The notes below the pieces were generated by a model that did not search any database, had not been told where the DNA came from, and saw nothing but the letters and a program-made list of their open reading frames with translations. The position numbers and the translations under genes were made by a program. A stretch of DNA of 64,000 nt from a virus (lineage: Duplodnaviria; Caudoviricetes), in the IMG/VR virus record IMGVR_UViG_3300021197_001789, positions 1,708-65,707 of that record; one strand, written 5' to 3'. This document shows positions 973 through 57,789 of this stretch, in pieces (position 1 is the stretch's first letter; each line of letters begins with the position of its first letter).

Positions 973-1109
973 GTGTTCTGAAATAGCATCATAAATTCTA
1001 GCTTTGCTAACACTTCGTGTTGCTCATCACAAGTGAGGTCTTGAAACGCCTTACTGTACATTTCTGCGGATATCCGCTTTACGTATATGCTTTCGTTGAG
1101 TTCGTTCAT
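969..1109 (-). CDS. small hypothetical protein (46 aa, LTCDEQ motif)
   Basis: Manual translation MNELNESIYVKRISAEMYSKAFQDLTCDEQHEVLAKLEFMMLFQNT. Confidence 0.55.
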   Translation of the reverse strand: MNELNESIYVKRISAEMYSKAFQDLTCDEQHEVLAKLEFMMLFQNT

Positions 1110-1111
1110 GA

Positions 1112-1270
1112 CTAACCGATTAAATCTTCGATTGTCATTTGCTCATCACAGCTAAGCGCATCCCACTCGCTTGTGGTTGTGGCTTGGCTGAATGTTAAGC
1201 CGTCAAAAAGTTGCTTTGCCGCTTGGATGCGGAGGTCGTGTGCTAGTGCACTTGTGTTGATTTTGTCCAT
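1112..1270 (-). CDS. small hypothetical protein (52 aa, LSCDEQ motif)
   Basis: Manual translation MDKINTSALAHDLRIQAAKQLFDGLTFSQATTTSEWDALSCDEQMTIEDLIG; A-rich leader. Confidence 0.55.
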   Translation of the reverse strand: MDKINTSALAHDLRIQAAKQLFDGLTFSQATTTSEWDALSCDEQMTIEDLIG

Positions 1271-1371
1271 GATGTTGGATTTTATGGTTTTTGATGTTAC
1301 TAAGATGGTTTGTATTATATATCTTCATAAATGAAGAGATATATAATACTAAACCTTCTAAGCGGATTAGA

Positions 1372-1408
1372 ACATAGTGGGGAATCGAACCCCAATCGCA
1401 CCCTATGT
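1372..1408 (-). ncRNA. tRNA-like minihelix (acceptor-like stem plus T-arm only)
   Basis: Minus strand ACATAG-GGTGCGAT-TGGGG TTCGATT CCCCA-CTATGT: canonical T-loop, 5-bp T stem stacked on a 6-bp stem, no D or anticodon arm. Confidence 0.5.
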
Positions 1409-1431
1409 GCCTATGCTGGTGGGCTGTGTGC

Positions 1432-1851
1432 CTAGAACGGAGGCTCAAGGCTTTCTTCGAACTTAGCAACGGCAACCGCTTCCGCATCTTGCATACGCTT
1501 GGTGCGAAGTTTAGCCATAGCAACCTCAACTGTCTCTCCTTCGGAGAGCGTGTACACCTCCCTACGTGGGGCTTTGTAGCTTTCGACAACCTCAGGCTTC
1601 AGGTACGTAGTGCATACGTTAGCCCTAGCTTGTTGCCGTTCTAACCTTTGGTTACGGCTCTTCGGCCTACCTGCAGATGCCTTACGTGCTAAGGGGTTGG
1701 ACTTAGTTGGCTTAGCCTCAACCTCTTCGAGGTTAGAGATGCTATCCGTTAACTGCTTTAGCAGTTTTAACGCTTGAGCCTTACGCTCAGGAGTAGCCAT
1801 GTATTTGGCTTGGTTTACTGCCTTACGGCAGTCTTTGAAATCAATATTCAT
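1432..1851 (-). CDS. basic early protein, paralog of 1880-2170
   Basis: Shares N-terminal KDCRKAVNQAKYMxTxERKAxALKLLKQLT with the upstream gene. Confidence 0.75.
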   Translation of the reverse strand: MNIDFKDCRKAVNQAKYMATPERKAQALKLLKQLTDSISNLEEVEAKPTKSNPLARKASAGRPKSRNQRLERQQARANVCTTYLKPEVVESYKAPRREVYTLSEGETVEVAMAKLRTKRMQDAEAVAVAKFEESLEPPF

Positions 1852-1879
1852 CTTCGATGGTTTTTAGATGTGTAACGTA

Positions 1880-2170
1880 CTATGCTGAAAGCATAGCTAA
1901 AAGTTCAGCCTTAGTTAACTTCGTTAAGTCAACCGCTTTAGCCTTCTTCGAAGGCTTTACCTTCGCTTCCGCTATGGCTTTCTTCGAAAGAGGCTTTGCC
2001 TTAGCCTTCGGCTTCGCTTTAGCCTTCGGCTTAACCTCTTTGAGGTTAGTAACGGCTTCGGTTAACTGCTTTAGCAGTTTGAGTGCATTTGCCTTACGCT
2101 CTGCGGTGGGCATGTACTTTGCTTGGTTCACTGCCTTACGGCAGTCTTTGAGGTTTATGTCTGTTGACAT
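1880..2170 (-). CDS. Lys/Ala/Pro-rich basic protein, first early gene (histone-H1-like composition)
   Basis: KPKAKAKPKAKAKP tract; directly downstream of the promoter at 2216-2223. Confidence 0.75.
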   Translation of the reverse strand: MSTDINLKDCRKAVNQAKYMPTAERKANALKLLKQLTEAVTNLKEVKPKAKAKPKAKAKPLSKKAIAEAKVKPSKKAKAVDLTKLTKAELLAMLSA

Positions 2171-2215
2171 GGGTATATGGTTTTATTCTCAGCGACATTG
2201 CTGAGTTGATGCCGA

Positions 2216-2223
2216 CAAAGGTA
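2216..2223 (-). promoter_or_regulatory. Bacteroidetes primary-sigma -7 element (TACCTTTG), early promoter
   Basis: Matches TAnnTTTG; a TTTG lies 23 nt upstream; 45 nt before the ATG of the first early gene. Confidence 0.65.
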
Positions 2224-2299
2224 AGGCTAACATTTGCTTACTTCGACAAAACTGACCAACTGATTCCACGCGCCTTTTACCGAAGGTAAAACACGCACG

Positions 2300-2800
2300 A
2301 AGAATCCGCGCATGTGTGTGCGCTGTGCGATCACGCACGTGCCTACGCGAGAGAGCCATGTATTTTGTATTGATAATTCAGGTTTTGTATTTGTATTGTT
2401 TTCCCAATTAATACAAACAACAACGAGGTAATTGTCAATAGTAAATGAGGTCGCATGTATGTAAGCGTATTAGAGTATTACTCTAACTCGTAGGTGGTAG
2501 GGGTGTGATTGTCACACACTTACGCAGAACTGCACTCGTACGTACGTATTCCCAACCGATGTAAAGTAAGGCTTTAAGTGACTACGGATAACTACTTGCC
2601 TATCAGATAGTTGACGTCAAAACTTTGGGCTCACTTGCTCACGATACGCTGACGGGGGGGTGCGCCAAATCGCGTTTCCGTGCGCAGATGTACGCGTTCA
2701 CATATACATATAATCCCCCATCTAAACATTTCTCAGCAAATTTTCAACCATTTACATTTTTTCAGCCAAATTTTTCCAGTGGCGCGGATCTTTTTTACGA
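2300..2800. other. non-coding divergent junction, candidate genome terminus/pac or origin region
   Basis: Largest intergenic region, at the strand switch; alternating purine-pyrimidine tract, palindromes (TAGAGTATTACTCTA, CTATCAGATAG, TTGACGTCAA), G7 at 2654-2660, clustered A/T tracts 2728-2796. Confidence 0.4.
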
Positions 2801-3070: not shown

Positions 3071-3772
3071 ATGCCAGGCCTCCTCAAAAGAAACAAGTAC
3101 CGATTACATAAATATGCCAATGGTGGTAGTGTAGGTGATCCTAAACATAAAAATCAAGTATCTAATTGGTCCTCTAAAGAACTTAAAGAATTTTTAGGTG
3201 AAGAGTACTGGGGGAAAATTCAGGAAGCCATACGTAAATATCCAATGGATGTTGATCATAATGCAGGAAATGTTGAAAGGTATGCTGACCTGAATGATCC
3301 AGATGATGTTGATTATGATCCTGAAAGATATATAAAAATGACTACCCCGAAAATGGGGCGCAGTATAGACATTTTAAAATATATTGAAGACAAGTCTACT
3401 AATGATGTATATAGTGAGGACATAGACTCTAGGATAGCTAAAGAGTTAAAATTTGCCCCATACAATGACATAAAACTTCTTAAATCTAGAGTAATAAAGC
3501 AAGATCCAGTTGATAAAGAACTTAAAACGAGCACTACCTCTATACCTACATCTAAACGAAAGTCAACGTATGGTTATAAGCTACAAGGAGGTAAGTATGG
3601 ACAAGTCCCTACCCACAAAAACGTTTGGAACGATGAGACTAAAAAATGGATGAGAGTAGATCTAGAGCCTGAAGAGATAGAGTATTACAAGAAACAAAAC
3701 CTTCCTCAAGAAAAGCAAATAGTAAAAGCTTCTTTTAACTATGGGGGTAAAGTACGGTTATTAAAGAAGTAG
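3071..3772 (+). CDS. hypothetical protein with KYANGG and FNYGG motifs (putative head-internal protein)
   Basis: 233-aa ORF, first + strand gene, xxGG motif at both ends. Confidence 0.75.
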   Translation: MPGLLKRNKYRLHKYANGGSVGDPKHKNQVSNWSSKELKEFLGEEYWGKIQEAIRKYPMDVDHNAGNVERYADLNDPDDVDYDPERYIKMTTPKMGRSIDILKYIEDKSTNDVYSEDIDSRIAKELKFAPYNDIKLLKSRVIKQDPVDKELKTSTTSIPTSKRKSTYGYKLQGGKYGQVPTHKNVWNDETKKWMRVDLEPEEIEYYKKQNLPQEKQIVKASFNYGGKVRLLKK

Positions 3773-27383: not shown

Positions 27384-28222
27384 TGAGTATGAACAAAGTA
27401 AAACTTAGCCAGATTATACGTGATTTTATAATCACCTTAGATCATGACGACTATGTATCTAATGCATCTGATGTTGCTATAAGAAACATAGCCCTCCGAG
27501 GGATACGTGAGATAGGATTTGATATAGGTAAAAAGATACGCTCTATTAAATTAACTGTTGAATCAAATGACACGGTAACTTTACCTGACGATTACGTAGA
27601 TGTAAGTAAAATAGGGATTATTGGGGAGGATGGAATTATTAGAGCCTTAAATCACAACAGCAATCTTAACTATTCACAAAAATATGAGGTGGATAGCGAT
27701 GGTGATGCCACTAACGAAACAAACGACAGTGACGAAGGACCGCTTAATATAGAAAACAACATTGTTCTGGATAGACAAGATGATAAAACATCTACTTCTA
27801 GTTCAGACGCTGATGATTTCAACGCGTTCATTTTTGAGAATTATATTTTTCAAGGAGGGACAGGACGTTTGTATGGGGTAGGTGGTGGTTCTGGCCCAGG
27901 TGAATATAGGATTAACTTAGATCAAAACAGAATAGAGATTGCGTCTAACAGTAATTTCACTCAGTTGGTTATGGAGTATGTAGCTGATGAAGCTAGATCT
28001 ACAGACCCAGAAGTTCATGTATATGCTGAAGAGGCATTAAGATGTTATATATATTATAAACTATGTGAACGGAAAGCAAGCGTACCAGCCAATGAAAAAG
28101 GAAGGGCGCGTTCTGAGTATTATAACGAAAGAAGAAAAGCTAACGCTAGATTAAGCACATTTACTAAGTCTGAAGCTCTTAAAACTATACGCAAGAACTT
28201 CATGCAGGCACCTAAGTTCTAA
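27383..28222 (+). CDS. tail ring / tubular protein
   Basis: TLPDDYV..SKIG and VH.YAEEAL..YI.Y motifs. Confidence 0.7.
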   Translation: MSMNKVKLSQIIRDFIITLDHDDYVSNASDVAIRNIALRGIREIGFDIGKKIRSIKLTVESNDTVTLPDDYVDVSKIGIIGEDGIIRALNHNSNLNYSQKYEVDSDGDATNETNDSDEGPLNIENNIVLDRQDDKTSTSSSDADDFNAFIFENYIFQGGTGRLYGVGGGSGPGEYRINLDQNRIEIASNSNFTQLVMEYVADEARSTDPEVHVYAEEALRCYIYYKLCERKASVPANEKGRARSEYYNERRKANARLSTFTKSEALKTIRKNFMQAPKF

Positions 28223-31200
28223 TGATAGATAAAATTACACCAAGAGCTCTGGATAAAAGTTCAGACCATAAACTTGTCCCAAAGACAAGCATGATAGATG
28301 CTCTTAATATGTATATTTCTGAGGATTCTATAGATGAGGAGGGCAACTCAGGGATTTTAAAAAACATAAAAGGAAATAAAAACGTAGAGTATGGTATTGG
28401 TAATGATTACCCCATTAACCCAGGAGTTGGGTTTAAGGTTATAGGTAGCGTTACAGATAGCTTAACACATATATGTTATTTTTTTGTATGGAGCGAGGAT
28501 GCGCGAGATCACGGGGTATGGGCATACGATAAATATGGAAAGCTTCCCCAAGGTGCTGGGACAAACCTCAATGCTACAATGGGAATAGAAAACTCTATAA
28601 GGAAGATATTTACGTCGTCTCAATTTAATTTTCCAGAACATGGGTTTGTTAAGGGGGATATAGTTCACAAAAGCGGTAGCGAGTTCTATCGGAGGGATAT
28701 ACAGCTAGGGGAGTATGATTTTGAGGCTATTGCGCAGGCAATCTTTGCTATGCTTGATGCTGGTGAGTTTCCTGAGACGTTGGATGTTGAAACCCCGCTT
28801 GGGGCGTCCTCCCCCATTTTTGCTGACGACTCTTTGAATATACGCTTTCCAAGTGAAGAAGGTAATATATACCCTAACCTTATTGAATGGTTTGACAACC
28901 CGCGTCGATCAAAACTTAAAGCAGAGTTTGAAAGGGACGCAATATTGTACTTTACGGATAACGAAAACGAGCCAAGGAAAATAAACATCTACAGGGCATT
29001 ATTAAATCAATTAACCCATATAGGGGGGTATGATGCTATTAGCGTAGCAGATTTTATATGCGCGTGCCCAAAGACACCTTTAGACAGGATATCTTTTGAG
29101 TTTTCACCCGACCTGCTCAGGTCGGTAAATAACTTTTCTACATCCCCAGGTTTTCAGTTTGCTTATCAAAATATATATATAGACGGGGCGGAGAGTGCTA
29201 TATCGACGTACTCACAAATAGCTTTCCCTCCTTCTGTTCTTAACAGGGGGGCAGCACAGACTTCAAACCTTCTTGGTCACAACCTCTGTACGCTAACTTT
29301 GCCTGTTTTAGGGGTAGAGATTGAAAGCATTAGAATATTAGCAAGGTATGGCAATACATCTAATTTCTTTGAAATAGACGAGGTTAAAAACAAAAGAGAT
29401 AAGTTTGATGACAACAACTTGTGGAATCACAGTACAAGAAAATATAAATTCTATAACGACAGGGTTGGATTTGGAGTCTCTCCAAAAGAGGTAGACAAAA
29501 CGTTTGATAATTTGCCGCGCAAGGCACAGGCACAGACAACTATAAGCAACCGCCTCGTATATGGAAACTACGTAGAGGGATATGACAATGTAGAGACGAA
29601 TTGTTCCTCACAAGTTATATACAATCCGAGGCCTATAGATTTTTTAGATCTAGTAATAAAGGCTCACCCATCTATTGAGCCTACACCTTTTGGGGACAAT
29701 AAAACAGTTGGTTTTCAAATAGACACAACTGAAATCCCCCCTACTGTACCAAAAGATACTGTAATTCAGGTTGCTTTAGACTACACTCCGCATAGCAATT
29801 TCCATCTATATCAGGCCCATAATACATCAGGCACTGTTGGTTCATCGTATCACCAGTCTAGACAGGTGGGAAAATATAGTTCTAACGCCAACGGGTATAG
29901 ACATTGGCCGCTTACGCATGAGCACAATTTCTTCTTTGAAGAGGGTGAAAGTGAAGATGATGTAGATGGTTTTAACTTTACACATGGAACGGAGAATTCA
30001 CCTTCTCCTGCGGATTTGCAGGAGCAAGGTTTCCCTAGTGAAGACGCGGGATTTAATATTGATAGCTGGGGAACTAAAAGCGGTTCTGGAGGGGCTTATT
30101 TAACTAAGGGTGAGCCATTTTTTGGGCAAAACTATGGGGTTGGTGCTAAGGCTGATGAATCTTTGTCTGACTTGGCGACTCCAGGAAATATAAACGATCT
30201 ACCATTATGGAGGGTAACAAATTCACACACATCCGCCGCGGGTATTGTAGATCTTGAAAATGGACATAAAGCCAGGTATGGTACTAGTGCGGGGAACCCG
30301 CTGATATTAAGCCAAGCGCCTTTACGGTTTGAGGTAAAGTTTAAGGTGGTGGAGAGTATTGTAGGTAACGCAAAAAGTGTTGTTGCGGCTATTATAACTG
30401 AGGCTTTGGCTGGGGCGGATGGTGTTCCTTTTTCTCAAGGCGGCGGCGGAGTCTTTACCTATGCTGCATTTATAGAGAATGGAGTTTGCGAAGAGGTGGT
30501 AAATACAGTACGTGTAACCAAAGACCAATACGATCTTGGTTTAGGGTACGACCCAGAAAATATATCTAACTCAAATTTTAGCTTCCCTTCTTTTGCGCAG
30601 AACGATGATTTGAGTCAACTTGTATGTGGGCTTGGAGCTTTAGATCACACCGATAACACAATAGGTGATTTAGGCACTTACTGGGGCAGAGGGGCTCAAG
30701 AGAGTATACCTTTTGGATTTTTTATCATAAACAGAGCAGAGGTAGATTTTTATCTAGAGCAGGTAGGTGGCGATCATCAGGATGGAAAGCATATGAGGCT
30801 TTGTATATCTAAGATAGATGTCGAGCAGGAGGATATTATGACCTGCATAAGGAGATTAGATCCGAGGTCTCCATGGTGGGCCGTACATCCATCTACTATA
30901 CAGGACCCAACCTTCGCAGGATCATTTTCCGCTTCAAATGGAGGCAACGGTGATTTAACTATCTGGGATACTACTGGGGTAGATGGCAGTTCAGAGGCTG
31001 AGCTATGGCAAAGCAGCTTCCCTTATAAATTTAAACTACCTGACCCTTTATTTCACGAAGGTCACCCTGCATTTGTAAACCCATATAAATGGTTTATAGC
31101 TATGTTTGATGTAAGCTCAGATCTTACTGACTTTGATTCAAGTTTGTTTGAAGGAGCAAATTTCTTTAACGAGAGGTGGGTAAACTTAGGGTTTTGTGGG

Positions 31201-34200
31201 TATTTAGATATATCTTCAGCAAATCACCCTCACATTTACAAGCCGCACAACGCAGACAACTCAGACTATATACCTAAACGAGGGGAAAGTAAATTTAAGT
31301 TTTCGCTTATGGATGGAGAGGGTGGCCCAGGTGGGATAAGTGCTGGGGGTAACGCTGCATACGATAAATATGGTAATGCAAATTATGGCTCTATCGCAGG
31401 GCGGGTAGATTTTGGATATGACGGGAGCAGCGTAAGTGTTTCTAGATACAATATAGGTAGTGGAGAACATTTATATCAGGCTATGGTTGGGGGGTCTGGT
31501 CTTGATTCAGATGATGAAATAGTAACAATCGGTATGACTCCAGCGGGCACAGGTAATGCGGGGGTAGGTATAGCTCTTGGTTTAGATGATAGCACCGAGG
31601 GGGAAAATATTTTATATAGAGAAAAATACGTTGTAAGCGGTCCCTTTTTTACGGGTAGTATTGCTATGAACCCCGTTGTTGGGGAATCTACGGACGCAGT
31701 AAACCCTAATCCATTTCCACCGATAAAAGACTACACAACAACTTTACCTCTTATATGGGTTAATAGCGGTCAGGTAACCTTAGGCACTAGCTCAACAATA
31801 CCTTTAAACTGGTTAAATACATCCTACCCTTGGCCACAGGTTATAAGAAACGCTTCACTGCCTTTTATTGATAGTTCTGGATTTATAACAAACGCAGAGA
31901 TTGATGAGTACCCATTTTTTAACCCTCAGTTTTACCCATCGGATGCGGTCTGGGGGGATCCTACTAGTGTTATGGATTTAGACGTAGACGATATTGTTGA
32001 TAACCTCACCTCCCCTCCTGATCATAATCATTTTGGCTGTGTTGATTTTTCAAAATTCCACTCGCATATACATGGGCAAAGTCAGTCATCATATGTAAGC
32101 GGGTTCGGCGAGGAAAATTTTTCATTCAAAACATCCGCAACACATGAGTTTGGTATAGTATACTACGACCAGAGGGGAAGGCACGGGTATGTAAACCACC
32201 TAGACTCGGTATATGTGGAGGGTTACTCTCCGCAAAAAAGAGGTTATAGTTTACAAGGTTCAGCACATATACAGCTAAGCCTCAAACACTCACCCCCGTC
32301 TTGGGCTCACAACTACAAAATAGCATATTCTAAAAACACTAGCGTTTCTGACTTTGTACAATACTCCGCTGGGGGTGCATTCGTTGCCGAGGGAGAGAGT
32401 ACGGCGGGCGATCCATCTAAAATCTATGTATCCTTAAATTACCTTCAGGGTCATCCTATATCTTACTCCAGTGCCTGGGGTGCTAGATCTAAAGAGGGGA
32501 GTATGGCTATATATACCCCGCAAGAAGGGGATAGACTGAGAGTTATATCTCATATGATGCCGCCTTCTTCAGAGGCTGCACCTACAAACATATACCCATT
32601 TAATTATGAGTTTGAGGTGTCTGGGGTTGTATCGCTTGATAATACTGAGGAAAACCCTTTATCTTATATTAACGACTCTGAAACTATTGTAGACGAAAAC
32701 AGGCAAGGCTTGTTTATTATATTAAAAAATAATAACTCGGCATCTGGATTTAGATATCAAGACGTAAGAGATGCGGTGCACAACTGGGGTAATAATTGTA
32801 TCGTTGAGATATTTTCACCCGTTAAAGAGATAGACCCTGAGGATAGATTGTATTACGAAATAGGCAAAACCTACAAAGTCTTAAGGCAAGAAAACGCAGA
32901 TGGGGAAGCTGAGTATGTGCATGAAGAAAATAATGTGCTTTTAACCGAGGGTGATGTATATTTTAGAAATACCGCGGTTAACCTAAGAGACTATAATACG
33001 GACTTAAATGATACTGGCTTAATAGGGTACGAGGATATAATAATAAACACTGAGCCAGATGATATTGAAACAGCAGACGTAAACGAGTTTAGGACATCGG
33101 AGTCTAACTTTAAGAGCTATTATCTAGAGTCTCCTGTGGGTACAGATTTGTTTAAATCAGATGCTATTTCTATAGGTCGCCCGAACATAATTAAGCACGA
33201 TGCATCAGAAAACCGCAAGTTAGCTAGCGTTATACATTCCGATAAGGATATTATAGACTCCAGCAAAGTCTCTTACTCTTCTTTTAATCGCTCTATACCT
33301 ATAGATCAGGATTTAGATATCAAGGGGGGTGAAATAAACTATCTCACCAATCACGGGGAAAACTGCTTCTTTGTTCAGAAAAATAAATGTGGGTATATAC
33401 CTATAGATAGAAACATAATTTCAGATGTATCTGGTGAGTCTAGTCTTATTGCATCTAGTAAATTTTTCAACACCCCCAAATACTACGCGGGTAGAGCTGG
33501 GGCGGATGGAAATCCTGAATCGGTTGTAAGTGTAGATAGCACCGCATATTTTGCACACAAAACATTAGGGGAGGTATATAAGGTCTCTGGGGCAAATGGG
33601 GTGCAGATAATTTCAGAAATAAACATGAAGTCATATTTCAGAGATTTGTTTCAAACCGCTATGGCTAAGTCTTTTACTGGCGGCCCCGTGCGTGTGGTAG
33701 GAGGATATGACCCATTGAAAAGTGAATATCTTTTAACCGTATTAAACCCAGGTAGATTTAAAGACAGACCAGAATTACCACCTGTGGAAAGGCCTAATCA
33801 GTTTGATTCGTCTGAAATAATATACGGGTGCACTGACTCTTTATCAGATAACTACAACCCAGAGGCTACCGTAAGTGATGGCTCATGTACATATGTGTAC
33901 GGGTGTACAAATCCTCTTGCAGATAACTATAACCCAGATGCTAACGTAAATGACAGTAACTGCATAGCTAACCCTGATTTATTCTGGTTTAACCCCTGCA
34001 ATTACCCTCAGCTTTTTAATGAGGAAGGCTATGTAGATGATTTTTCAATATTAGGAGCTTGGGAGACAGCAAGGAGTTTTGCGCAGGTTGATGAAAATGG
34101 CGTATTTGGGGTTGAGGGAATAAATGATTTTTTTGTAATGACAAATCAGTATCAACAACTTTTAGATGCTGGATCTACAGCCGAAACAATTAATTTAGTC

Positions 34201-35637
34201 TGGTCTTTACAATATCCTATCCAAGGTGAGTTTCTAGGTTTGGCTTCTTATGTAGGGATGGGAAATAATATTAACTATCTTAATAATGGCCCTCAAAATG
34301 TATACGGAGAGGGGTTTTTTACAGAGTCTTATGATTTTTATTGCGAGAATGACGTTACACAAGGTTTATCTGGGGGAGGTGAAACACAAGGAATCCCTGG
34401 GGGAGGCGGCGGTAATTTAGACTACAACGGTAGCGGAAGCAGCACAAACGGAGGAGGGGGGTTACCACCAACTGTACCGCCACCAACTGTACCACCACCA
34501 GGGTTGCCTTTAGCTCAGAGAAATACTAACTCAAGGGCGCAGACACAGCCTCTACCTTTTACGGGGAATCTGTGTGATTATGATATGCTTATAGATCCTC
34601 TAACTAGCGCTATAACTGCCGAAAGTATAACTCATGCCTTTAACCTTTTAAGGGATATTGTTGAATCTAATGATGGAGAAGGAATATCACCATATAATTC
34701 TGATGGTTACGGTGGGTTAGTAGCGTTAACTCATCTTTTCCCAAATTTTGCCAACGGGACCACAGAGTGGCCTGGGCTGGTGGGTCAGGGGACACTAATT
34801 CCATCAGACCCTAGTTTAGATGGTTTTTATAATACAACTTCAGGGGCGTGGGTTGAAAACTTCCCAACCATGGATTTTGAAAGCTATGGTGGAAACTGGT
34901 TTAACGGGTCAGATCTTATTAGCGCTTTAGCCACATTAAACCCTGAGTGGTATACTGTGCAAAACGGAATTGTAACAGGAGGGCCGCAGAGCAATGATAC
35001 ACTTTCTTTACCCTGCGTTTCTAATCCTGAGCCAACACTGGAATACACGGGGAACCTGTGTGACTACCCTATATTAGCTGATAATAATGGCGTAATATCC
35101 TTCGAGTCCATAATGCTTGCGTACGAAGATGTGTTAGATATGATGGGGCTTAATGAAAGTGATCCAAATTATATAACTATGGCGGAGGCAACGTTTGTTT
35201 TCCCCGATATAAGCGGTGATGGACAGATCCAAACTCAAGACATTGTACAGCTTTTAACAAACGATACAACTATTTTATGTAATGGTCCTGTCCCTCCCTC
35301 ACAAAACATATGCGACTATCCTTTGCTTGTAAATGACCAAGGTTTTATAACAACTCAATCTATAAGCGATGCCGTTTCCTTTGTATCTAATGGAATTTCT
35401 CAAGGAGATTTTTCTTCCGAATATGGGACGAGCTTACTGCCAGACTATAATAATGATGGACTTATAAGTACTACTGATATTTTATCTCTTCTTAATCTTC
35501 CGTTGCCTATAAACTGCGGGGAGGGGATTCCAGGTATAGTTAAACCTATTAAAGACAGGCGGATTTCAAATTTAACCTCTGCAAAAGACTCAGCAGTAAA
35601 ACAAGTAAAGAACAAAAGAAAAAAAGATAATTACTAA
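28222..35637 (+). CDS. tail nozzle/muzzle (stabilisation) protein, N-terminal part, with C-terminal GCTD repeats and dockerin-like repeats
   Basis: DALN..I...G.LKNIKGN, LYFTDN.NEPRKINI, NRLVYGNYVEGYD, FGIVYYD.RGR, G...NPESV, GGYDP...EYLLT. Confidence 0.75.
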   Translation: MIDKITPRALDKSSDHKLVPKTSMIDALNMYISEDSIDEEGNSGILKNIKGNKNVEYGIGNDYPINPGVGFKVIGSVTDSLTHICYFFVWSEDARDHGVWAYDKYGKLPQGAGTNLNATMGIENSIRKIFTSSQFNFPEHGFVKGDIVHKSGSEFYRRDIQLGEYDFEAIAQAIFAMLDAGEFPETLDVETPLGASSPIFADDSLNIRFPSEEGNIYPNLIEWFDNPRRSKLKAEFERDAILYFTDNENEPRKINIYRALLNQLTHIGGYDAISVADFICACPKTPLDRISFEFSPDLLRSVNNFSTSPGFQFAYQNIYIDGAESAISTYSQIAFPPSVLNRGAAQTSNLLGHNLCTLTLPVLGVEIESIRILARYGNTSNFFEIDEVKNKRDKFDDNNLWNHSTRKYKFYNDRVGFGVSPKEVDKTFDNLPRKAQAQTTISNRLVYGNYVEGYDNVETNCSSQVIYNPRPIDFLDLVIKAHPSIEPTPFGDNKTVGFQIDTTEIPPTVPKDTVIQVALDYTPHSNFHLYQAHNTSGTVGSSYHQSRQVGKYSSNANGYRHWPLTHEHNFFFEEGESEDDVDGFNFTHGTENSPSPADLQEQGFPSEDAGFNIDSWGTKSGSGGAYLTKGEPFFGQNYGVGAKADESLSDLATPGNINDLPLWRVTNSHTSAAGIVDLENGHKARYGTSAGNPLILSQAPLRFEVKFKVVESIVGNAKSVVAAIITEALAGADGVPFSQGGGGVFTYAAFIENGVCEEVVNTVRVTKDQYDLGLGYDPENISNSNFSFPSFAQNDDLSQLVCGLGALDHTDNTIGDLGTYWGRGAQESIPFGFFIINRAEVDFYLEQVGGDHQDGKHMRLCISKIDVEQEDIMTCIRRLDPRSPWWAVHPSTIQDPTFAGSFSASNGGNGDLTIWDTTGVDGSSEAELWQSSFPYKFKLPDPLFHEGHPAFVNPYKWFIAMFDVSSDLTDFDSSLFEGANFFNERWVNLGFCGYLDISSANHPHIYKPHNADNSDYIPKRGESKFKFSLMDGEGGPGGISAGGNAAYDKYGNANYGSIAGRVDFGYDGSSVSVSRYNIGSGEHLYQAMVGGSGLDSDDEIVTIGMTPAGTGNAGVGIALGLDDSTEGENILYREKYVVSGPFFTGSIAMNPVVGESTDAVNPNPFPPIKDYTTTLPLIWVNSGQVTLGTSSTIPLNWLNTSYPWPQVIRNASLPFIDSSGFITNAEIDEYPFFNPQFYPSDAVWGDPTSVMDLDVDDIVDNLTSPPDHNHFGCVDFSKFHSHIHGQSQSSYVSGFGEENFSFKTSATHEFGIVYYDQRGRHGYVNHLDSVYVEGYSPQKRGYSLQGSAHIQLSLKHSPPSWAHNYKIAYSKNTSVSDFVQYSAGGAFVAEGESTAGDPSKIYVSLNYLQGHPISYSSAWGARSKEGSMAIYTPQEGDRLRVISHMMPPSSEAAPTNIYPFNYEFEVSGVVSLDNTEENPLSYINDSETIVDENRQGLFIILKNNNSASGFRYQDVRDAVHNWGNNCIVEIFSPVKEIDPEDRLYYEIGKTYKVLRQENADGEAEYVHEENNVLLTEGDVYFRNTAVNLRDYNTDLNDTGLIGYEDIIINTEPDDIETADVNEFRTSESNFKSYYLESPVGTDLFKSDAISIGRPNIIKHDASENRKLASVIHSDKDIIDSSKVSYSSFNRSIPIDQDLDIKGGEINYLTNHGENCFFVQKNKCGYIPIDRNIISDVSGESSLIASSKFFNTPKYYAGRAGADGNPESVVSVDSTAYFAHKTLGEVYKVSGANGVQIISEINMKSYFRDLFQTAMAKSFTGGPVRVVGGYDPLKSEYLLTVLNPGRFKDRPELPPVERPNQFDSSEIIYGCTDSLSDNYNPEATVSDGSCTYVYGCTNPLADNYNPDANVNDSNCIANPDLFWFNPCNYPQLFNEEGYVDDFSILGAWETARSFAQVDENGVFGVEGINDFFVMTNQYQQLLDAGSTAETINLVWSLQYPIQGEFLGLASYVGMGNNINYLNNGPQNVYGEGFFTESYDFYCENDVTQGLSGGGETQGIPGGGGGNLDYNGSGSSTNGGGGLPPTVPPPTVPPPGLPLAQRNTNSRAQTQPLPFTGNLCDYDMLIDPLTSAITAESITHAFNLLRDIVESNDGEGISPYNSDGYGGLVALTHLFPNFANGTTEWPGLVGQGTLIPSDPSLDGFYNTTSGAWVENFPTMDFESYGGNWFNGSDLISALATLNPEWYTVQNGIVTGGPQSNDTLSLPCVSNPEPTLEYTGNLCDYPILADNNGVISFESIMLAYEDVLDMMGLNESDPNYITMAEATFVFPDISGDGQIQTQDIVQLLTNDTTILCNGPVPPSQNICDYPLLVNDQGFITTQSISDAVSFVSNGISQGDFSSEYGTSLLPDYNNDGLISTTDILSLLNLPLPINCGEGIPGIVKPIKDRRISNLTSAKDSAVKQVKNKRKKDNY
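33826..33963 (+). repeat. two GCT(D/N)xxxxNYNPxAxxxDxxC repeats
   Basis: GCTDSLSDNYNPEATVSDGSC and GCTNPLADNYNPDANVNDSNC. Confidence 0.8.
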
Positions 35638-40293: not shown

Positions 40294-40524
40294 ATGTCGA
40301 CAAGGAAACTTTCACAAAAAGATGACCAGTTCATCAACGATCTGATAAGCGATAAGCAGGCTTTTTTTTTTAAAGGAAAAGCCAAAAAAGGTTTCGATGG
40401 AAAACGGAGGGGTAGTGTCTCCAGACCTAGTTACGCCATCGGTATCGGGTTTGCTAGACACTTTATCGGAATATGGATTACCCTCGGAGGCAGAGAGCAC
40501 CGCTTCGGATACACAAGAGGTTAG
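40294..40524 (+). CDS. short ORF carrying the probable true start of the giant virion protein (joined by a +1 shift at T10)
   Basis: Promoter and A-rich leader precede 40294; T10 at 40362-40371; +1 frame is open from 40349 into the 40397 ORF. Confidence 0.55.
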   Translation: MSTRKLSQKDDQFINDLISDKQAFFFKGKAKKGFDGKRRGSVSRPSYAIGIGFARHFIGIWITLGGREHRFGYTRG

Positions 40525-43500
40525 TTTACTTCCTGAGGGATATAAAGATCAGCTTGAAGGTGTGGATGCTCAGCTTACTCCCCGCTCATTAGACGGGATA
40601 CCTGAAGATCTTCAAGAAATATACGGTTTTAAAGAGGCTGAGTTTAACCCACCTGTTTTTAACACCCCTGTACCTAAAGCACCTACACCTATGTATGTGC
40701 CCTCACTTTCTACGCCAGGAGAGAGCTATTTAAGACAGCCAGATCAAGGGGAGATTGACAACTATAATGCAGATGTAGACGCGTATAATAGCGACAGGGA
40801 GTCTTATATAGAAGAATACGATAGTACGCTTACAAACTTTAAATTAAAGCAGTCAGAGAGGACTAAAAACTTTACCCCATTTTTTAGAGAGATAGATTTT
40901 AACACTGTAGGTACATTATTCAATAACGAATATGATTTCTCAAAGGTTAAGTTAAGTAAAAAGAGGCTGCCTGTCAATTTGAGTTATGGTGAATCTGAAA
41001 GAGGCAGTGTCGAATGGGGTGATTTGTTTGGAGCAGAGGATACTGTGGAATCCTTCACGGGTAAACTGCGTGAGGAGATACTTGCAGAAGCAAACTCTAA
41101 ACCTCTTGTAGAAAAATATAAAGCACTGGCTGATGCCGAGGCTGCAAAAGGGTTTGGAGAGGATGGAACAGGAAACCGATTAGAATATAAACGCTTAACC
41201 TCTCTTTACGACGGGAATGAGTTAACAGAGGAAGCAATCAAACTTCAAATGAAAATGTTTGGAGGAGCTGCCATAGATAACCTTATAATGCAAAAAGTTG
41301 CATTATCTCCAGAGGCTTGGGCCGCTTCTACTTCAACAAAAAAAGGTGAAACATATAAAAACTATCTTGAGAGGTTAGAGGACAGAATATTTAATGATTC
41401 TGTGAAAGACCCTAAACTTATGGCTTTGTCTGCAGAAATCTTTGGTGAGCAGCAGCAGGAAGGTGTTATAGCTATTAGGCCATACTTAGAAGGTCCAATT
41501 TCAATCGGTGAATGGACGAAGAGGGATGAATACTGGAGTCAGTTTGGAATCAATATGGAAATCGGGTGGTATGATGCCTTGAGGGGCATGTCAATGTTCG
41601 GGGATGCATTAAAAGAATTTGAATACAGGTTTTCTGGTATGGGGGACGAAGATTTTGTAACGTCTGGAGAGCAAAAATTTGATAGAAAATTAGAAAGAGA
41701 AAAAGCTGTAGAATACCAAGTAGCTCTGGAAAAGACAAAGGCTTCTTTGAGTAAAGAGGTAACGCAGATTGCGCTTAGTGAGGATATACTTAAAGAGTTT
41801 GATGAAACTGCATTTTACAACAGAGACCATATAATAGAACGTGAAGAGGGAGCACTGGCAGATGCGATAAGCTTGGCATACAGAACTGAGATAGCTATGC
41901 CTGCTTACAGGTCAGCACCTCTATCGCTATTAACACAGGCTATGTCTATACCAGCTTATGCTACTGGAGGTTTATATGCAGGTTTTGCCTTCCAATCAAC
42001 GTTAATGGGTGGGGTAGCTGGATCAACATACTATAACGATGTGCTAAGTAATGACCGCTTATATGGTCATCTTTCGGAGAATCAAAAACTGTGGTATGCT
42101 TTTTCACACGGATTGGCAGAGGGTGCAGGTGAGTTAGCTGGTAACATATTGATAGGTAAGGCTTTGGGTATTGGTAAGCTTGGTGGAAGGTTTAGCTTGT
42201 ACAATAGATTTAAAGGTGCAAACTTTGCTGGAAAAACCTTAATCCCTATAAAAAGGTCCATGGGGCAGCAGTTTGGAAATACCGCTAAAAATATCATGGT
42301 AGGAACCGCTTACGCTGCTGCTGTTGGATATACTGAAGAAAGACTTGAAGAAACTATTACAGGGTATTGGCAGAAGGCAAGTGATAGATCTGCTCAAGGG
42401 TTAGATTTCGATCATTGGATTAACTGGGATGAAGCTAATCATGCAGGAAGAATAGGAGGTCATATGGGAATTGGCTTTGGTGTAGGCATAAGGTCGGCGC
42501 AGAACACCGCAGCTCTATACCAAAGAGCTTTTGAAGGAGCTTCTTTTGATAGAAACTCTAGAAACTCTCTCCTAAACCAAATAGATAATGATTACGGTCA
42601 AGGGCTAACTAAAGCTCATTGGAAGGAAATCCAGAGACTAAATAAGGAGATGGGTATTACTCCAGGAATGTCACCTCTTTCTATTACGGGTATTTTAGGA
42701 AAACTAGAGAACAAAGAGAAGGTTGAGAGGATAAACGAGTTGATGGAGGAGTATGAGAACAAAAACAGAGATATGAAAGAGCTTCTAGATGAAGCTTCTG
42801 GCCCTCATACTAGAGAGCATAGCGCTCTTTTAGCCGCTTTGGTTATCGAGAGTAACCTGTCTAAAATGAATGCAGCTTTAGGTATTGAGGTGAGTAGAAA
42901 CAGCGCGGGAAGGCTCGTTGACCAGTATGGAAGTTTTCTGCCTAATGAATGGGAGAGCAGCTATTTTGGTAAAGAAGGAGCTAAGTTAACTCCAGAAGAG
43001 CGTAAAGCAAAAGGAAAGCAAAAAAGAATACATGACGGAAGGCTGAAGATGTTTCAGTTTATGTTAAAAAACAACCTTATATCACAGGGCTTTAGAACAA
43101 GCGGTCTATCTACACAAGAAGAGATAGTTGATAGAACAAAAAACCCACTTGATTTAAAGGACGCTACCCTTCTTAGCGGAGCTCTAAGTGAAGAGACAAG
43201 AGCTTCTCTTAAAGAGGCGGGTATGTCCGAGGACGTTATTAATCAATTTGATGATATACTTAAAGAAAATCCCGATGTAGAAATCATTGCTCATACAACA
43301 ATGGACTCTATGGATAGGGTGTCTTCAGGTGCTGAAGGACTCTATATTGAGACAGAAGAAGATGTAGAGACGATATCTGGATTTGGGTACGGTAATCAAT
43401 ATATGAAGACGCCATCACTTCGACCTAAAGAAAATAAAAAAGAGCTGCACGTATATGTAGGTGAAGGAGCTGATATAAGCAGAGTTCTTACACATGAGTA

Positions 43501-46500
43501 TGGTCATTTAGCTTTTGAAAGGTTTATAAACGGAGAAGCTGTTTTGTCTGAAGAGTCTTGGAACGAGTTAGAAAATAAAGATGAGGAGACGTATGCAGAG
43601 CATGTACAGAAACAAAAAGATCAAGCGGAGAAGTTCGTCAATGCGATGGCTCAGCAGATAATAGAAATGAAAGACCCAAAAATCCAGGAGATTGTGGAGT
43701 TTACGCTTCGTGCTGAAGGCAAGAACCTTTCAGAGGAGGCTAAAAGGGTTTTAAACAAAGAGCTTGTAAATAACTTTATGGAGGCTATAGCCCGCGGGGA
43801 GTTTATCAGGAGAAATCTTGAGGGAGGATTGGAGTATAACGTACAGGGCGTGTCGCTAAAAGACTCGGAGATGGGGTTCAAAAACTGGGGGAAGAAACTC
43901 CTTATGGACTTTGGGGTGATGAAAGATTTTGACTTTAGCAGAGAAGAGGATGTAATTATGATGGCTATAAAGTTTTCTGAAAGAGCAAGAAAATTAAATT
44001 TGCAAAAAGGAAAAACCGCCACGGAAGCTAAAGCGTCTCCAGAAGCAGATAAAATTTTAGAGCGACTCGGATTAAGTAGCCGCCGTATAGATCCTAACGA
44101 AGGTATAGACTTTAGCCAGGGACCGATTACTATAAAATACACTCAAAACGTAGTGGGTTTACAGAGAGGAACGTATACAAATGTTTCCATAGAGAAAGAC
44201 AGGAGAGGAAACGATATGAAGGATGTGGAGTGGACTATACAGGATAGGAACCATCTTGAGTACTGGTACTCTAGCAAAACTGGTAACAGTGTGGCTAAGC
44301 CTGCTATTACAAACCTGCAGTACCTAAAGGATGGTGAATGGGTAGACATTAACCCACCTAATCCTATAACAAGAAATGGGAAGATGGTTTCTAAACCGCT
44401 CCCTACTATGATATCAGACCTAGTAATAAAAAAGCGGGTAAAAACAATAAAGAATAGAGAAGCTTTAGTTGCAGAGGTTGATCAGGCCAAGCAGCAGCTG
44501 AAAGACCTTTGGTTTGATTCAGATAAAAAATTAAACTACCACACCAACGCTGAGGATTTTCTCCCTGTAAATAATGATATGATTAACATCCCTGTTGGGG
44601 CGGGAACAACGGCGGAAATAGAAACTGAAATTGAAAACTATAAAATAGGGGTAGCAAATATTCAGGCTTTGATAGACTCTTCTATAGAGAAGGAAGATTT
44701 AGCAGAGATTGCGGGTGGTGCTCAAAAATACATCGACCCTGCAAAAAACCCAGAGATATTTAATATGAGTGGGCTGCGTATGACTGAATCGTTTGAGCAG
44801 AAAGCGGTGCGGGTTAACGAAGAGATACAAGACTTCGGAGCCCCATGGCAACTGCTTCCTAAGGATTCGCCATCATACAAGAATCGTATTCCTGACCTAC
44901 GTATAGCTTCTCAAGAGGAGTTAGACTATGCGTCTGACAGAATGGATAGACTTAAAGCTGGTGAGGCATTAGAAGGGGATTTACTTGATTTCAACCTAAC
45001 CGATGATATAGGTCTTGCCTCTAGCGTGCTTGACCTTAACAAAGAAAACCCTTTATTTTCTAACGAAGCCACAGAGGAAAATTTCCAAGAATTTTTAAGC
45101 GGTCAAATTAAATCTGGGAGGGTTAAAAACTTTGACGAATTAAAAAGACTTCTAAAATTTGCTGGTTTCTCTGAAGCTAATTACAGTCTTCATAATGTAG
45201 ATCAAACTCGCATAGGTAAAGGTTTTATATCTTACAGAATAGGTAAAAAGCGTTTTAAATCTAGCTTTGTTTTAGCAGGCGGTCCATTGGGTAGTGCTCA
45301 AGCTTCTCTCGATGGAGGAAATATTGTTCACAGTAACACCGATATGGAGACGGCATCAAGCGTTCAGAAGAATGCAAAAACTGTTCACGAAGCTAATAAC
45401 AACAATCCATACCTGTTGGGGCTGGCTTTACTCTCCAGGGAGAACAGCTTAAAGAACCCACAGGTATTTACAATAGCAAATACGCTTCTTCTAAATTATT
45501 TAAGCAATGCACCAGAGCACTCTGAAAAAGCAATAAAAATGCTTAATAATTTTTTCAAAAATTCATATGCTCCAGCTACTGTATCATCAACTTTTAATCA
45601 GGTTGACGATACCACAAGCTCGTTTGCAATGGCGGCGACAACTAATGGTCAGAGGTTTGCTGGGTTTTCTCAACTAAGTTCGATGGAGGGTATCGACACA
45701 AGTGGTTATGGGTTAAAAATAGAAAACGAAATAGGCTTAACGAATTTTTTAAGTTTCTTTTCTAAGATTGATATGAAAACGTTGACGGGCAATACTAGTT
45801 TTAAACTTAGAGGGGAGTTTGTTTCGAACATATTTGGAGCTCGAACAGGCATGTCTAAAATAAATGGTTTCCCTTCTCAAGAGCATTTTTTAGATTCGGT
45901 AAATCAACCTGAATATAAAAATCTAGAGGTTGGATCTGTTGTAAATATGACCATGGTTGATACGGCAAACGCGGGGCTAACTGACAGCATATCATCAACT
46001 ATGAACGAGCAAACTGAAAAGGGCTCTATTTCAAGAAAGCTCTTAAAAAACATCGCATATGAGTTTGGGGTAACAGGACATGTAACTACTTGGAATTTTG
46101 AAAACGCTCTCCCAAATGGAGAACTCTTTAAAATGGAAACAAGACAAGGAACTTCTGGATTTCAAAAGGTTGGGTTATTATCCCGTAGAATACCAGGAAG
46201 AATATATTCCCAGGGTAACAGTGCATGGGAACAGTCTACAGCTACTCCTTATGGAGAAAAACTTCAGTGGGCCGCTAGAGTCTTCCAAGACAAGTTCAGC
46301 GACATTATGATCCTACAACAAGACATCGAAGTCTTCCGTGGAAAGAAAGTTCCTCAGTCTCAAGACTTTGAGATGTCTATGGATATCATGTATGGTATGA
46401 TAAGGACCGACCTTGAAAAACTAGAGTTAGAACTTGACAAAATAAACGAAGCAGTAAAGGACGCGGGATATACGGCGGAGATGGTGTCTGATTACCTGTA

Positions 46501-57536: not shown

Positions 57537-57789
57537 TTTCTTTTGCAATGATTAGCAGGATTATATACCCTGCGATGTCTATTAATGTGTCTTCTGTGTC
57601 TTCAACTAAACCTGCGTTAGCTATTCTTTTTAGCTTATCGTCAAGTCTAATCTTTATGCCTGACGATGCATTAGCGGAAGAAAAAACGCCCAGAGGACTC
57701 AAAGCTGAGTCCCCATAGGCGTCGTTCTTTCTAACTAACAGATCTTCAAGCTGACGACATTTTAATTTTATGTTGTCTTTTGTGTTCAT
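57415..57789 (-). CDS. nucleotide-modification-associated domain 1 (DUF1599-like) protein
   Basis: L.RKN.AYGDS...IRLDDKL.RI...EDTLIDIAGY.IL. Confidence 0.75.
   Translation of the reverse strand: MNTKDNIKLKCRQLEDLLVRKNDAYGDSALSPLGVFSSANASSGIKIRLDDKLKRIANAGLVEDTEDTLIDIAGYIILLIIAKENESNDIQKRIREGGTASHTDRDSLDEDTVGEVWFSHSAST

Follow-up and report, generated by a model that had tools for sequence, protein, structure and literature searches.

A conserved array of minimal hairpins overlying two small phage genes and their leader

Organization of the locus

The window analyzed here is a stretch of 64,000 nucleotides (nt) that extends from base 1708 to base 65707 of one virus record, 65,707 bp in length (IMG/VR IMGVR_UViG_3300021197_001789). 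Near its left end, two adjacent open reading frames (ORFs) on the minus strand, ORF A and ORF B, and the leader upstream of them carry an array of conserved, minimal, perfect hairpins. The hairpins have stems of 5-7 bp, centres of 2-3 nt and an innermost pair with a pyrimidine on the 5' side and a purine on the 3' side. The array is kept by selection independently of the protein code and constitutes a real second layer of information over the genes.

ORF B (1880..2170, minus strand) is the first gene of a leftward block and encodes a protein of 96 amino acids (aa). It is followed by ORF A (1432..1851, minus strand), which encodes a small basic protein of 139 aa without a known family. ORF B, whose tail is rich in Lys, Ala and Pro, is paralogous to ORF A, and the N-terminal domain (KDCRKAVNQAKY...NLEEV) is common to both proteins. 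The leftward block starts at 2170 and a diverging rightward block at 3071, with a 900-bp intergenic region between them.

The hairpins are given here as read on the minus strand, the sense strand of both genes, unless stated otherwise. In ORF A, the hairpin CTCTCC-GAA-GGAGAG (1534..1548) encodes LSEGE and has its full stem in seven of eight aligned relatives and a 5-bp stem in the eighth. It is followed upstream by TAACC-AAA-GGTTA (1642..1654), for which a CAACC/GGTTG variant exists in relatives. The next three, AACCTC-GAA-GAGGTT (1720..1734, NLEEV), AACTGC-TAAA-GCAGTT (1751..1766, KLLKQL) and ACTGCC-GTAA-GGCAGT (1817..1832, DCRKAV), lie in the N-terminal domain shared by the two proteins and therefore have paralogous copies in ORF B at 2032-2048 (an approximate match), 2064-2079 and 2130-2145, respectively. 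The start codon of ORF A is held in CATC-GAA-GATG (1849..1859), the stop codon of ORF B in the 7-bp hairpin CTATGCT-TTC-AGCATAG (1880..1896) and the start codon of ORF B in ATGTC-AACA-GACAT (2157..2170). The Lys/Ala/Pro-rich tail of ORF B contains seven hairpins (1915..2031), five of which close C-GAA-G; they are situated at 1915-1927, 1940-1956, 1978-1990, 1991-2001, 2003-2013 and 2021-2031, with overlapping 4-bp ones.

Outside the two genes, the leader hairpin CTCAGC-(6 nt)-GCTGAG (2188..2205) lies between a predicted promoter and ORF B. Upstream of this leftward promoter, TTTTACC-GAA-GGTAAAA (2275..2291) carries its GAA on the plus strand, and TTAGAGT-AAT-ACTCTAA (2470..2486, minus strand) is intergenic. 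Two outlying C-GAA-G hairpins (1009-1021 and 1123-1133, minus strand) are found in the downstream small ORFs and form the tail of the hairpin-rich island (1009..1133).

The initial annotation had listed about 20 short inverted repeats in this region. Every one of them is present in the sequence, the repeat at 2188-2205 having a 6-nt loop. Since three pairs are paralogous, about 17 rather than 20 of the hairpins are independent.

Abundance of hairpins

Repeats were counted as perfect inverted repeats with a stem of at least 4 bp and a loop of 3-4 nt. The 760 bp at 1534-2293 contain 21 repeats with stems of at least 4 bp (window mean 7.55, standard deviation 3.13), 14 with stems of at least 5 bp (mean 2.37, standard deviation 1.94) and 10 with stems of at least 6 bp (mean 0.72, standard deviation 1.19). 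This is the densest place of the 64-kb window at all stem thresholds, in agreement with the initial remark that no comparable density was noticed elsewhere by eye. The second-densest place, at 48.9-49.7 kb, is ordinary, with stems mostly of 4-5 bp. No significant Rfam match was found for the array.

The strand bias of the C-GAA-G hairpins that had been noted is also borne out. On the plus strand these hairpins read C-TTC-G. The 65,707-bp genome has 64 CTTCG pentamers, of which 10 close a stem of at least 4 bp; all 10 pentamers lie at 1015-2026 of the window, and their hairpins all lie within 1009-2031. The opposite pentamer, CGAAG, occurs 52 times and closes such a stem once, at 2275-2291.

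Three kinds of shuffle were used as controls: synonymous permutation (5000 shuffles), codon resampling from genome usage and codon-order permutation. All three give far fewer repeats than observed. In ORF A and ORF B together, 19, 13 and 9 repeats with stems of at least 4, 5 and 6 bp compare with 8.6, 3.4 and 1.3 in synonymous permutation, and 7 C-GAA-G hairpins with 0.49 (P 8e-4 to 2e-4). For ORF B alone, the counts in the same four classes are 14, 8, 5 and 5 against 4.6, 2.3, 0.8 and 0.4 (P<=2e-4). For ORF A alone they are 5, 5, 4 and 2 against 3.9, 1.1, 0.5 and 0.1 (P 0.35, 0.006, 0.001 and 0.006), and its C-terminal two thirds (1432-1700) show no enrichment over shuffles. The window-wide scans and the three kinds of shuffle thus rule out chance or composition as the source of the array, and neither the hairpin density nor the C-GAA-G count is reproduced when only synonymous codons are exchanged.

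Duplication alone is excluded as well, since the unduplicated tail of ORF B is by itself enriched (9 repeats versus 2.9 in synonymous shuffles, P 0.0012). The earlier statement that the array is not a simple tandem duplication therefore stands for the array as a whole, although the three paralogous pairs did arise by copying of the shared domain.

Conservation and covariation in relatives

With both proteins as queries, 12 distinct viral contigs were found. A profile search returned 93 relatives from metagenomes, and the analysis was continued with the best 80 of these. All counts across relatives given below are of sequences related by descent and lack phylogenetic independence. At the 80 metagenomic loci, the stretch from -500 to +250 relative to the gene start has 13.5-16.6 perfect hairpins per kb (stem of at least 5 bp, loop of 3-4 nt), as compared with 2.2-3.6 per kb beyond 1.25 kb on either side of the island. 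Between +500 and +1000 the density is 5.4-6.0 per kb, against about 3 in the flanks. Some lineages have about 12 further hairpins in a noncoding leader of roughly 500 nt. In all, 298 distinct island hairpin sequences with unrelated stems were collected.

Covariation within the genes was scored for three coding hairpins in an alignment of 98 gene copies (96 distinct). The arms are paired in 96.1% of 1824 cells, compared with 21-44% when partners are slid along the alignment. Changes on both sides of a pair are found in 94 cells versus 29.2 in shuffles, and none of 500 shuffles reaches 94. In the hairpin at 1751-1766 (helix 2), both-side changes occur in four of the six pairs. Its forms include AACTGC/GCAGTT, AGTTGC/GCAACT, AACTCC/GGAGTT, AGCTCT/AGAGCT and others, some of which turn Lys-Gln into Thr-Glu. 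One pair of the hairpin at 1817-1832 (helix 1) is C-G in 78 copies, U-A in 14 and U-G in 4; in the U-A variant a synonymous change of Asp is coupled to replacement of Val by Ile. Changes in the arms thus sometimes force amino-acid changes.

For the noncoding part, twelve leader hairpins were defined on one relative and followed in 14 sequences. Paired cells amount to 86.5%, versus 26-44% with slid partners, the former value being inflated because the structure was derived from one aligned row. Double changes are found in 14 pairs, whereas shuffles give 8.7 and none of 500 reaches the observed number. In parts of the leader, a hairpin has been swapped for a different one in the same place. The intergenic hairpin at 2470-2486 is kept in both leader lineages, with a G-C to A-U compensation. 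The hairpin at 2275-2291 occurs 31 times among 81 scanned island stretches (the 80 loci and the window), with one compensated variant, TTTTCCC-GAA-GGGAAAA, in which the loop is inverted.

The stem covariation in relatives that had been proposed as a check on the array was therefore found: the hairpins are conserved in about 90 relatives, and compensatory changes are frequent. Together with the excess over synonymous shuffles, it upholds the earlier suggestion of a second code over the genes.

Covariation of this kind might also be produced by mutation. Quasi-palindrome correction, in which intrastrand template switching perfects and homogenizes quasi-palindromes, could act on a stretch that is often single-stranded, and the hairpins would then be functionless by-products. 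The strictly Watson-Crick pairing, with no bias between G.T and A.C intermediates, is what such a process would leave, and the amino-acid changes sometimes forced by arm changes fit it also. However, the same hairpins are found at the same sites in gene copies down to about 45% protein identity, leader hairpins are replaced in place by different hairpins, and nothing similar exists elsewhere in the window.

Related podophages that lack the ORF A/B family also lack the island: neither MW202828 (42 kb scanned) nor Flavobacterium phage elemoF (first 50 kb scanned) has one. This rules out the island as a general trait of related podophages, MW202828 having 48% terminase identity, and indicates that the array and the small basic proteins travel together. 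A direct interaction of the array with the ORF A and ORF B proteins is possible.

Loops, centres and closing pairs

Stems of 5, 6 and 7 bp account for 137, 99 and 58 of the 298 distinct hairpins, and 3-nt loops (182) outnumber 4-nt loops (116). When hairpins are sorted by their smallest possible centre and compared with flanks of similar length, only centres of 3 nt (182 versus 78 in flanks) and, weakly, 2 nt (101 versus 72) are enriched. Centres of 4, 5 and 6 nt show no enrichment (59, 65 and 50 in the island versus 77, 64 and 55 in the flanks). The restriction to minimal centres is a further property that a mutational origin would explain.

In two sets of noncoding hairpins, the innermost pair has a pyrimidine on the 5' side and a purine on the 3' side in 35 of 41 and 34 of 44 cases, as compared with 88 of 174 in flanks. 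The closing pairs of the first set are CG 20, TA 15, AT 5 and GC 1 and those of the other TA 21, CG 13, AT 8 and GC 2; in the flanks they are AT 54, TA 49, CG 39 and GC 32. A C:G closing pair is reported to be about 2-3 kcal/mol better than G:C (PMC3201870).

Within the genes, codon choice is directed at the loop. Where the wobble base of a Ser, Pro, Thr or Ala codon is loop position 1, it is G in 68 of 125 distinct contexts, versus 604 of 3172 (19%) elsewhere in the same genes. Where a Glu codon is the entire loop, GAA and GAG stand at 32:1, versus 332:595 elsewhere, essentially at two orthologous sites: the hairpin at 1534-1548 has GAA in 13 of 13 distinct TCC-GAA-GGA contexts, and that at 1720-1734 (helix 3) has CTC-GAA-GAG in 18 contexts and zero GAG loops. 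G at position 1 and A at position 3 are thus chosen at synonymous sites on the sense strand. Neither this choice nor the closing-pair bias is predicted by templated copying, and, taken with the points above, a mutational by-product is an improbable account of the array.

The eight C-GAA-G hairpins at 1534-2031 on the minus strand conform to the d(cGNAg) motif, a GNA triloop closed by 5'-C...G-3'. According to a published study, DNA fragments GCNNNGC form a mini-hairpin only with GNA loops, among which GAA gives the highest stability; the related octamer GCGAAAGC has an RNA counterpart with a far lower melting temperature (PMC13037366). The RNA equivalent of the DNA motif is described as the GNRA tetraloop (PMC5815330). 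The C-GAA-G rule proposed initially is real, being favoured at synonymous sites of the minus strand and fitting the published DNA rule, but it is restricted to the coding part. Noncoding hairpins do not follow the d(cGNAg) motif; their loops are TAT, TTT, ATA and AAA, and among 54 of them GNA is found in 5 sense and 3 antisense loops, roughly as expected by chance. What the whole array has in common is a minimal, perfect hairpin whose loop is rich in A and T.

The proposed strand bias of GAA itself needs a similar division. In shuffles 43% of loops are all-purine and 9% all-pyrimidine, so that the purine direction of the bias is expected from the Lys/Glu codon composition. The GAA triplet is over-represented beyond this, about fourfold, in the coding loops of the window (7 of 13 observed, 12.7% expected from shuffles).

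Messenger RNA or single-stranded DNA

A host-type promoter of the Bacteroidota is predicted to drive ORF B and ORF A. The sequence TTTG-N19-TACCTTTG (2216..2250, minus strand, leftward transcription) matches the Bacteroidota consensus. In a 29-sequence alignment (A5) most rows have a TA(C/T)CTTTG box, of the -7 type, at this site, and several have TACCTTGA or TATATTTG.

The hairpins could act in the sense transcript, where the leader and the two ORFs would form a hyper-structured early messenger RNA (mRNA) with a stem-loop every 20-60 nt. Such a message might be shielded against endonucleases, Rho loading or guide-RNA pairing, and the stem-loops might also tune translation of the small basic proteins by occluding start and stop codons. 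The layout resembles that of a transcript. The island has its centre at the start of the operon, and its density falls off downstream. The predicted promoter is followed immediately by the leader hairpin at 2188-2205, which has a compensated variant (CTCGAT/ATCGAG) as well as a sense-strand G.T form in the A5 alignment. Of 75 distinct gene copies, 57 have their start codon within a hairpin arm, versus 37% of island positions and 237 of 1142 flank ATGs, and the stop codon of ORF B is within a 7-bp hairpin. After ORF A there is a tRNA-like element with a T-loop on the sense strand and compensatory changes. The other leader lineage has about 500 nt of hairpin-rich noncoding sequence before the gene and no strict promoter match just upstream, which would be consistent with a long transcribed leader. 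The folding energy of the sense RNA is -306.7 kcal/mol versus -243.0 +/- 4.7 kcal/mol for shuffles (z -13.7), the loop preference is specific to the sense strand, and RNA nearest-neighbour energies prefer the real over the flipped orientation of pairs by 174:70 (-0.19 kcal/mol, a small difference).

Several points weigh against action in the mRNA. G.U is tolerated no more than A.C, the wobble counts G.T:A.C being 23:24 for the coding helices, 28:38 for imperfect hairpins and 10:27 for the helices of the leader, with no sign of sense-strand tolerance. There is no enrichment of tetraloops or larger loops, the usual ones in functional RNA, and the loop that is chosen is the DNA-type GAA triloop rather than GNRA or UNCG, as these motifs are described in the literature (PMC13037366, PMC5815330). 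Folding of the antisense strand is about as good (z -7.8), and neither strand gives the better consensus fold. Some conserved hairpins are situated upstream of the conserved promoter. The GAA triloop, the absence of a wobble signal, the equal folds of the strands, the minimal-loop rule and the hairpins before the promoter all speak for single-stranded DNA as the active form.

The start-codon result comes from just 3-4 or so independent start-site types. On balance, action in single-stranded DNA, beside the origin-like intergenic region, is the preferred reading, at a probability somewhat short of even, and action in the mRNA is a close rival at a slightly lower one.

The intergenic region contains an alternating purine-pyrimidine tract followed by an AT-rich tract (2296..2460, no strand assigned). 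These tracts, and 4.9 tandem copies of an iteron-like 11-bp unit at this site in one relative (L038, 312-365), suggest that the region is origin-like. If the hairpins work in DNA, the roughly 1.2 kb adjoining this tract would, once unwound, fold into many DNA mini-hairpins. Inside the genes, C-GAA-G, the loop reported to be most stable for DNA, is on the minus strand, which is the non-template strand and would also be the lagging-strand template for a leftward fork leaving the intergenic region. Such a carpet of hairpins might keep the strands apart and exclude single-strand binding protein (SSB), and it might offer loading sites for primase or helicase, or stabilize an R-loop, with the result that replication would be helped to start or to be primed. 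In its most specific form the proposal is that 20-30 triloops closed by C:G or T:A make the unwound 1.2 kb snap into a self-stabilized open state free of binding protein, which would be a loading and priming zone near the origin or an R-loop stabilizer; this is offered tentatively and is rather unlikely. The carpet, which would be laid down through synonymous sites and amino-acid changes that the proteins tolerate, and which travels as a module with the small basic protein family in a widespread marine phage clade, may be recognized by these proteins. The existence, conservation and covariation of the array, the selection of loop identity at synonymous sites and the restriction of enrichment to minimal loops are observed; action as DNA, an origin in the intergenic tract and any part in replication are inferred.

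A number of observations weigh against the single-stranded DNA reading. One is the preference of RNA energies for the real pair orientation, together with the result that by DNA nearest-neighbour energies the real orientation loses 73:161 (+0.09 kcal/mol, again small). Another is the transcript-like layout, with the operon start, the start and stop codons, the leader hairpin and the sense-strand tRNA-like element after the genes. Stems of 5-7 bp are generally considered too short for cruciform extrusion from duplex DNA, so that a source of single strands would be required. The primase-helicase gene is about 10 kb away, and the window itself has no tandem iterons. The lack of a GNA preference in noncoding hairpins means that extra DNA loop stability has not been selected across the whole array. 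Finally, phages without the ORF A/B family have no island, an absence that connects the array with the gene and not with replication needs in general.

Possible virion polymerase signals or a genome end as alternatives

Phage N4 has three hairpin promoters upstream of its early genes, on the template strand and with conserved flanks. The initial annotation had pointed to the promoters of the N4 virion RNA polymerase, and the array could accordingly consist of promoters or signals for a polymerase packaged in the virion, which would read single-stranded or extruded hairpin DNA. The format agrees: N4 early promoters are described as 5-7-bp stems with 3-nt loops, GGA or GAA, that are read single-stranded (PMC13037366). 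The polymerase of the crAss-like phage phi14:2 is likewise reported to transcribe single-stranded DNA, and its early transcripts are described as having no common upstream motif (bioRxiv 10.1101/2020.03.07.982082). The hairpin at 2275-2291, which precedes the leftward genes, has its GAA on their template strand. It is, however, the only one with the N4 geometry of a template-strand location, a purine loop centre and a position upstream of a start. About 20 hairpins lie within ORFs, with GAA on the non-template strand; on the template (plus) strand their loop is TTC, with a pyrimidine centre. Unlike in N4, host-type promoters are present, and one is conserved upstream of the genes. No polymerase of the N4 or crAss type was recognized: PF00940 (T7-like polymerase) is unmatched in the 65.7-kb genome, though control genomes were silent too, so that this result carries little weight; the DFDxD motif is absent from the two giant proteins of 2471 and 2909 aa; and PHROGs names no polymerase among the giant proteins. 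The N4 comparison is thus not sustained, and such signals are extremely unlikely. A link to the abundant early noncoding RNAs of phi14:2 was rejected as well, its regions having AT-only repeats and no comparable array.

The array had also been placed beside a presumed genome terminus, as exonuclease armour or as a stop or pause signal for ejection at the first-ejected end. The island does adjoin the large intergenic region where the gene blocks diverge, a plausible site for an end, and the injection-stop region of phage T5 is rich in repeats and palindromes. Nevertheless, the record is linear and has no end repeats, and the island is 3.2 kb inside it. Mappable contig ends (22 upstream and 36 downstream, among the 80 metagenomic loci) are scattered, with no common point. 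Stems of 5-7 bp, moreover, cannot form in duplex DNA passing through a tail. Neither the terminus nor a role linked to it, whether armour or ejection pause, finds support, and a function at a genome end is very improbable.

Comparison with known systems

The closest likeness is to the mini-hairpins d(GCGAAGC) of the complementary-strand origin of phage G4 and of ssiA from a broad-host-range plasmid, which have a GAA triloop closed by C:G. They are proposed to form in single-stranded DNA near the replication start, to bind SSB poorly and to lie next to primase sites (PMC13037366). Those replicons are single-stranded and have one to three noncoding hairpins, whereas here some 20-30 hairpins with unrelated stems extend over 1.2 kb of a double-stranded DNA phage, mostly in genes, and only the coding ones use GNA loops.

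The early RNase III sites of phage T7 are long imperfect hairpins between genes. They resemble the array in being palindromes of an early operon that could fold as transcript or as single-stranded DNA; the present hairpins differ in having perfect stems of 5-7 bp, mostly within codons. Stems of this length are too short for RNase III sites, which need about 20 bp or more of double-stranded RNA. The T7 early-operon palindromes are reported to be sensed by the Lamassu DdmABC defence (PMC11707656).

In single-stranded RNA phages, hairpins likewise extend over coding sequences and start codons and undergo compensatory change, as in the MS2 operator and its neighbours. Those phages have RNA genomes, varied loop sizes and frequent G.U pairs; the present phage has a double-stranded DNA genome, and in its array enrichment is confined to minimal loops and there is no preference for wobble pairs. 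The array shares with REP and REPIN elements the clustering of short palindromes. Those elements, however, have a common consensus and are intergenic, in contrast to 298 distinct hairpins without a common stem, and apart from the paralogous ORF A and ORF B copies no repeat family of REP or MITE type was seen. Intrinsic terminators were rejected because T runs are missing after the stems. Sites of the lambda nut/boxB type were also rejected, the loops being of 3 nt and 5-nt centres not enriched; the boxA motif was not searched for. Literature searches, which did not cover supplements, returned no description of such an array.

The locus is a clean natural case of overlapping codes, in which nucleic-acid structure fixes codon choice and even drives amino-acid replacements. 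The clade is uncultured yet widespread in the sea, with relatives at 80 metagenomic loci and in 12 viral contigs. Should the hairpins act in DNA, the mini-hairpin signals of single-stranded phages and of N4 would be extended to array form in a double-stranded DNA phage, and the array would be a ready target for defences that sense palindromes. Should they act in RNA, an early message would be armoured, unusually, by minimal triloops alone.

The phage, its small basic proteins and neighbouring elements

IMG/VR classes the record as linear, with a CheckV completeness of 100, and no end repeats were found in its 65,707 bp. Terminase, portal and capsid proteins match PHROG families, and among annotated relatives the closest are an uncultured podovirus (terminase identity 48%), elemoviruses of Flavobacterium and phages of Cellulophaga. 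Judged by these matches, the phage is a marine podophage of the Bacteroidota type. A phage nucleotide search with the first 6 kb gave zero matches, and no homologue of ORF A was found in a cultured phage.

Homologues of ORF A are present at 8 IMG/VR and 80 metagenome loci. Neither ORF A nor ORF B matched a family in Pfam or PHROG. An Atlas search for protein function gave unnamed clusters only (scoring 0.78), and a profile search against solved structures gave nothing significant (E about 0.9). The AlphaFold model is all-helical, with a predicted template modelling score (pTM) of 0.30. Some relatives (loci L003, L004, L008 and L013) have just one gene of the family in place of the pair found in the window. 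Lineages differ in the gene duplication and in having a promoter between the two copies.

In the intergenic region, a 12-nt element, TTTACTATTGAC, at 2872-2883 is the upstream part of a conserved rightward promoter, which continues with TAACTTTG at 2902-2909. The element occurs again, inverted, at 2445-2434 and is repeated in relatives; from its sequence, the inverted copy may mark a second, leftward promoter. The motif GAGAAATGTTTAGATGGGGGATTATATG (2700-2735, minus strand), about 530 nt upstream of ORF B, is common to both leader lineages. Metatranscriptome contigs cover 2503-2690 and 2646-2853. The four metatranscriptome runs gave only short, unstranded contigs of low depth, such as one at 1773-1965 with zero mismatches, for which carry-over of DNA is possible.

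The tRNA-like element (1371-1417, minus strand) directly follows the stop codon of ORF A. It consists of a stem resembling an acceptor, a short stem-loop and the T arm GGGG-TTCGATT-CCCC. The best Rfam match is to the mascRNA/menRNA tRNA-like family (23.7 bits, E 0.11), under the gathering score, and ARAGORN called no tRNA at 1371-1417. Compensatory changes in relatives are found in the T stem (AAGG/CCTT) and in the acceptor (GCATGA/TCATGC), and the element is missing from three of eight aligned relatives. Between ORF A and the next gene there is also a long AT-rich hairpin (1312-1349; about 16 bp with a bulge and the loop TAAA). It is 93-100% conserved in seven of eight relatives, above the flanking coding sequence. 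Rfam matches to microRNA precursors at this site were judged to be due to chance.

Elsewhere in the genome, the phage primase-helicase gene is located at 55737-57548. Two giant ORFs occupy 28222-35637 (2471 aa) and 40397-49126 (2909 aa). The PHROG matches of their proteins are to 'virion structural protein' and to unknown families, and the 2909-aa protein has an LPD38 domain (Pfam, 81 bits). ARAGORN found zero tRNA genes within the window. Two tRNA-like genes on the minus strand were seen by eye at genome bases 500-700 or thereabouts, to the left of window position 1.

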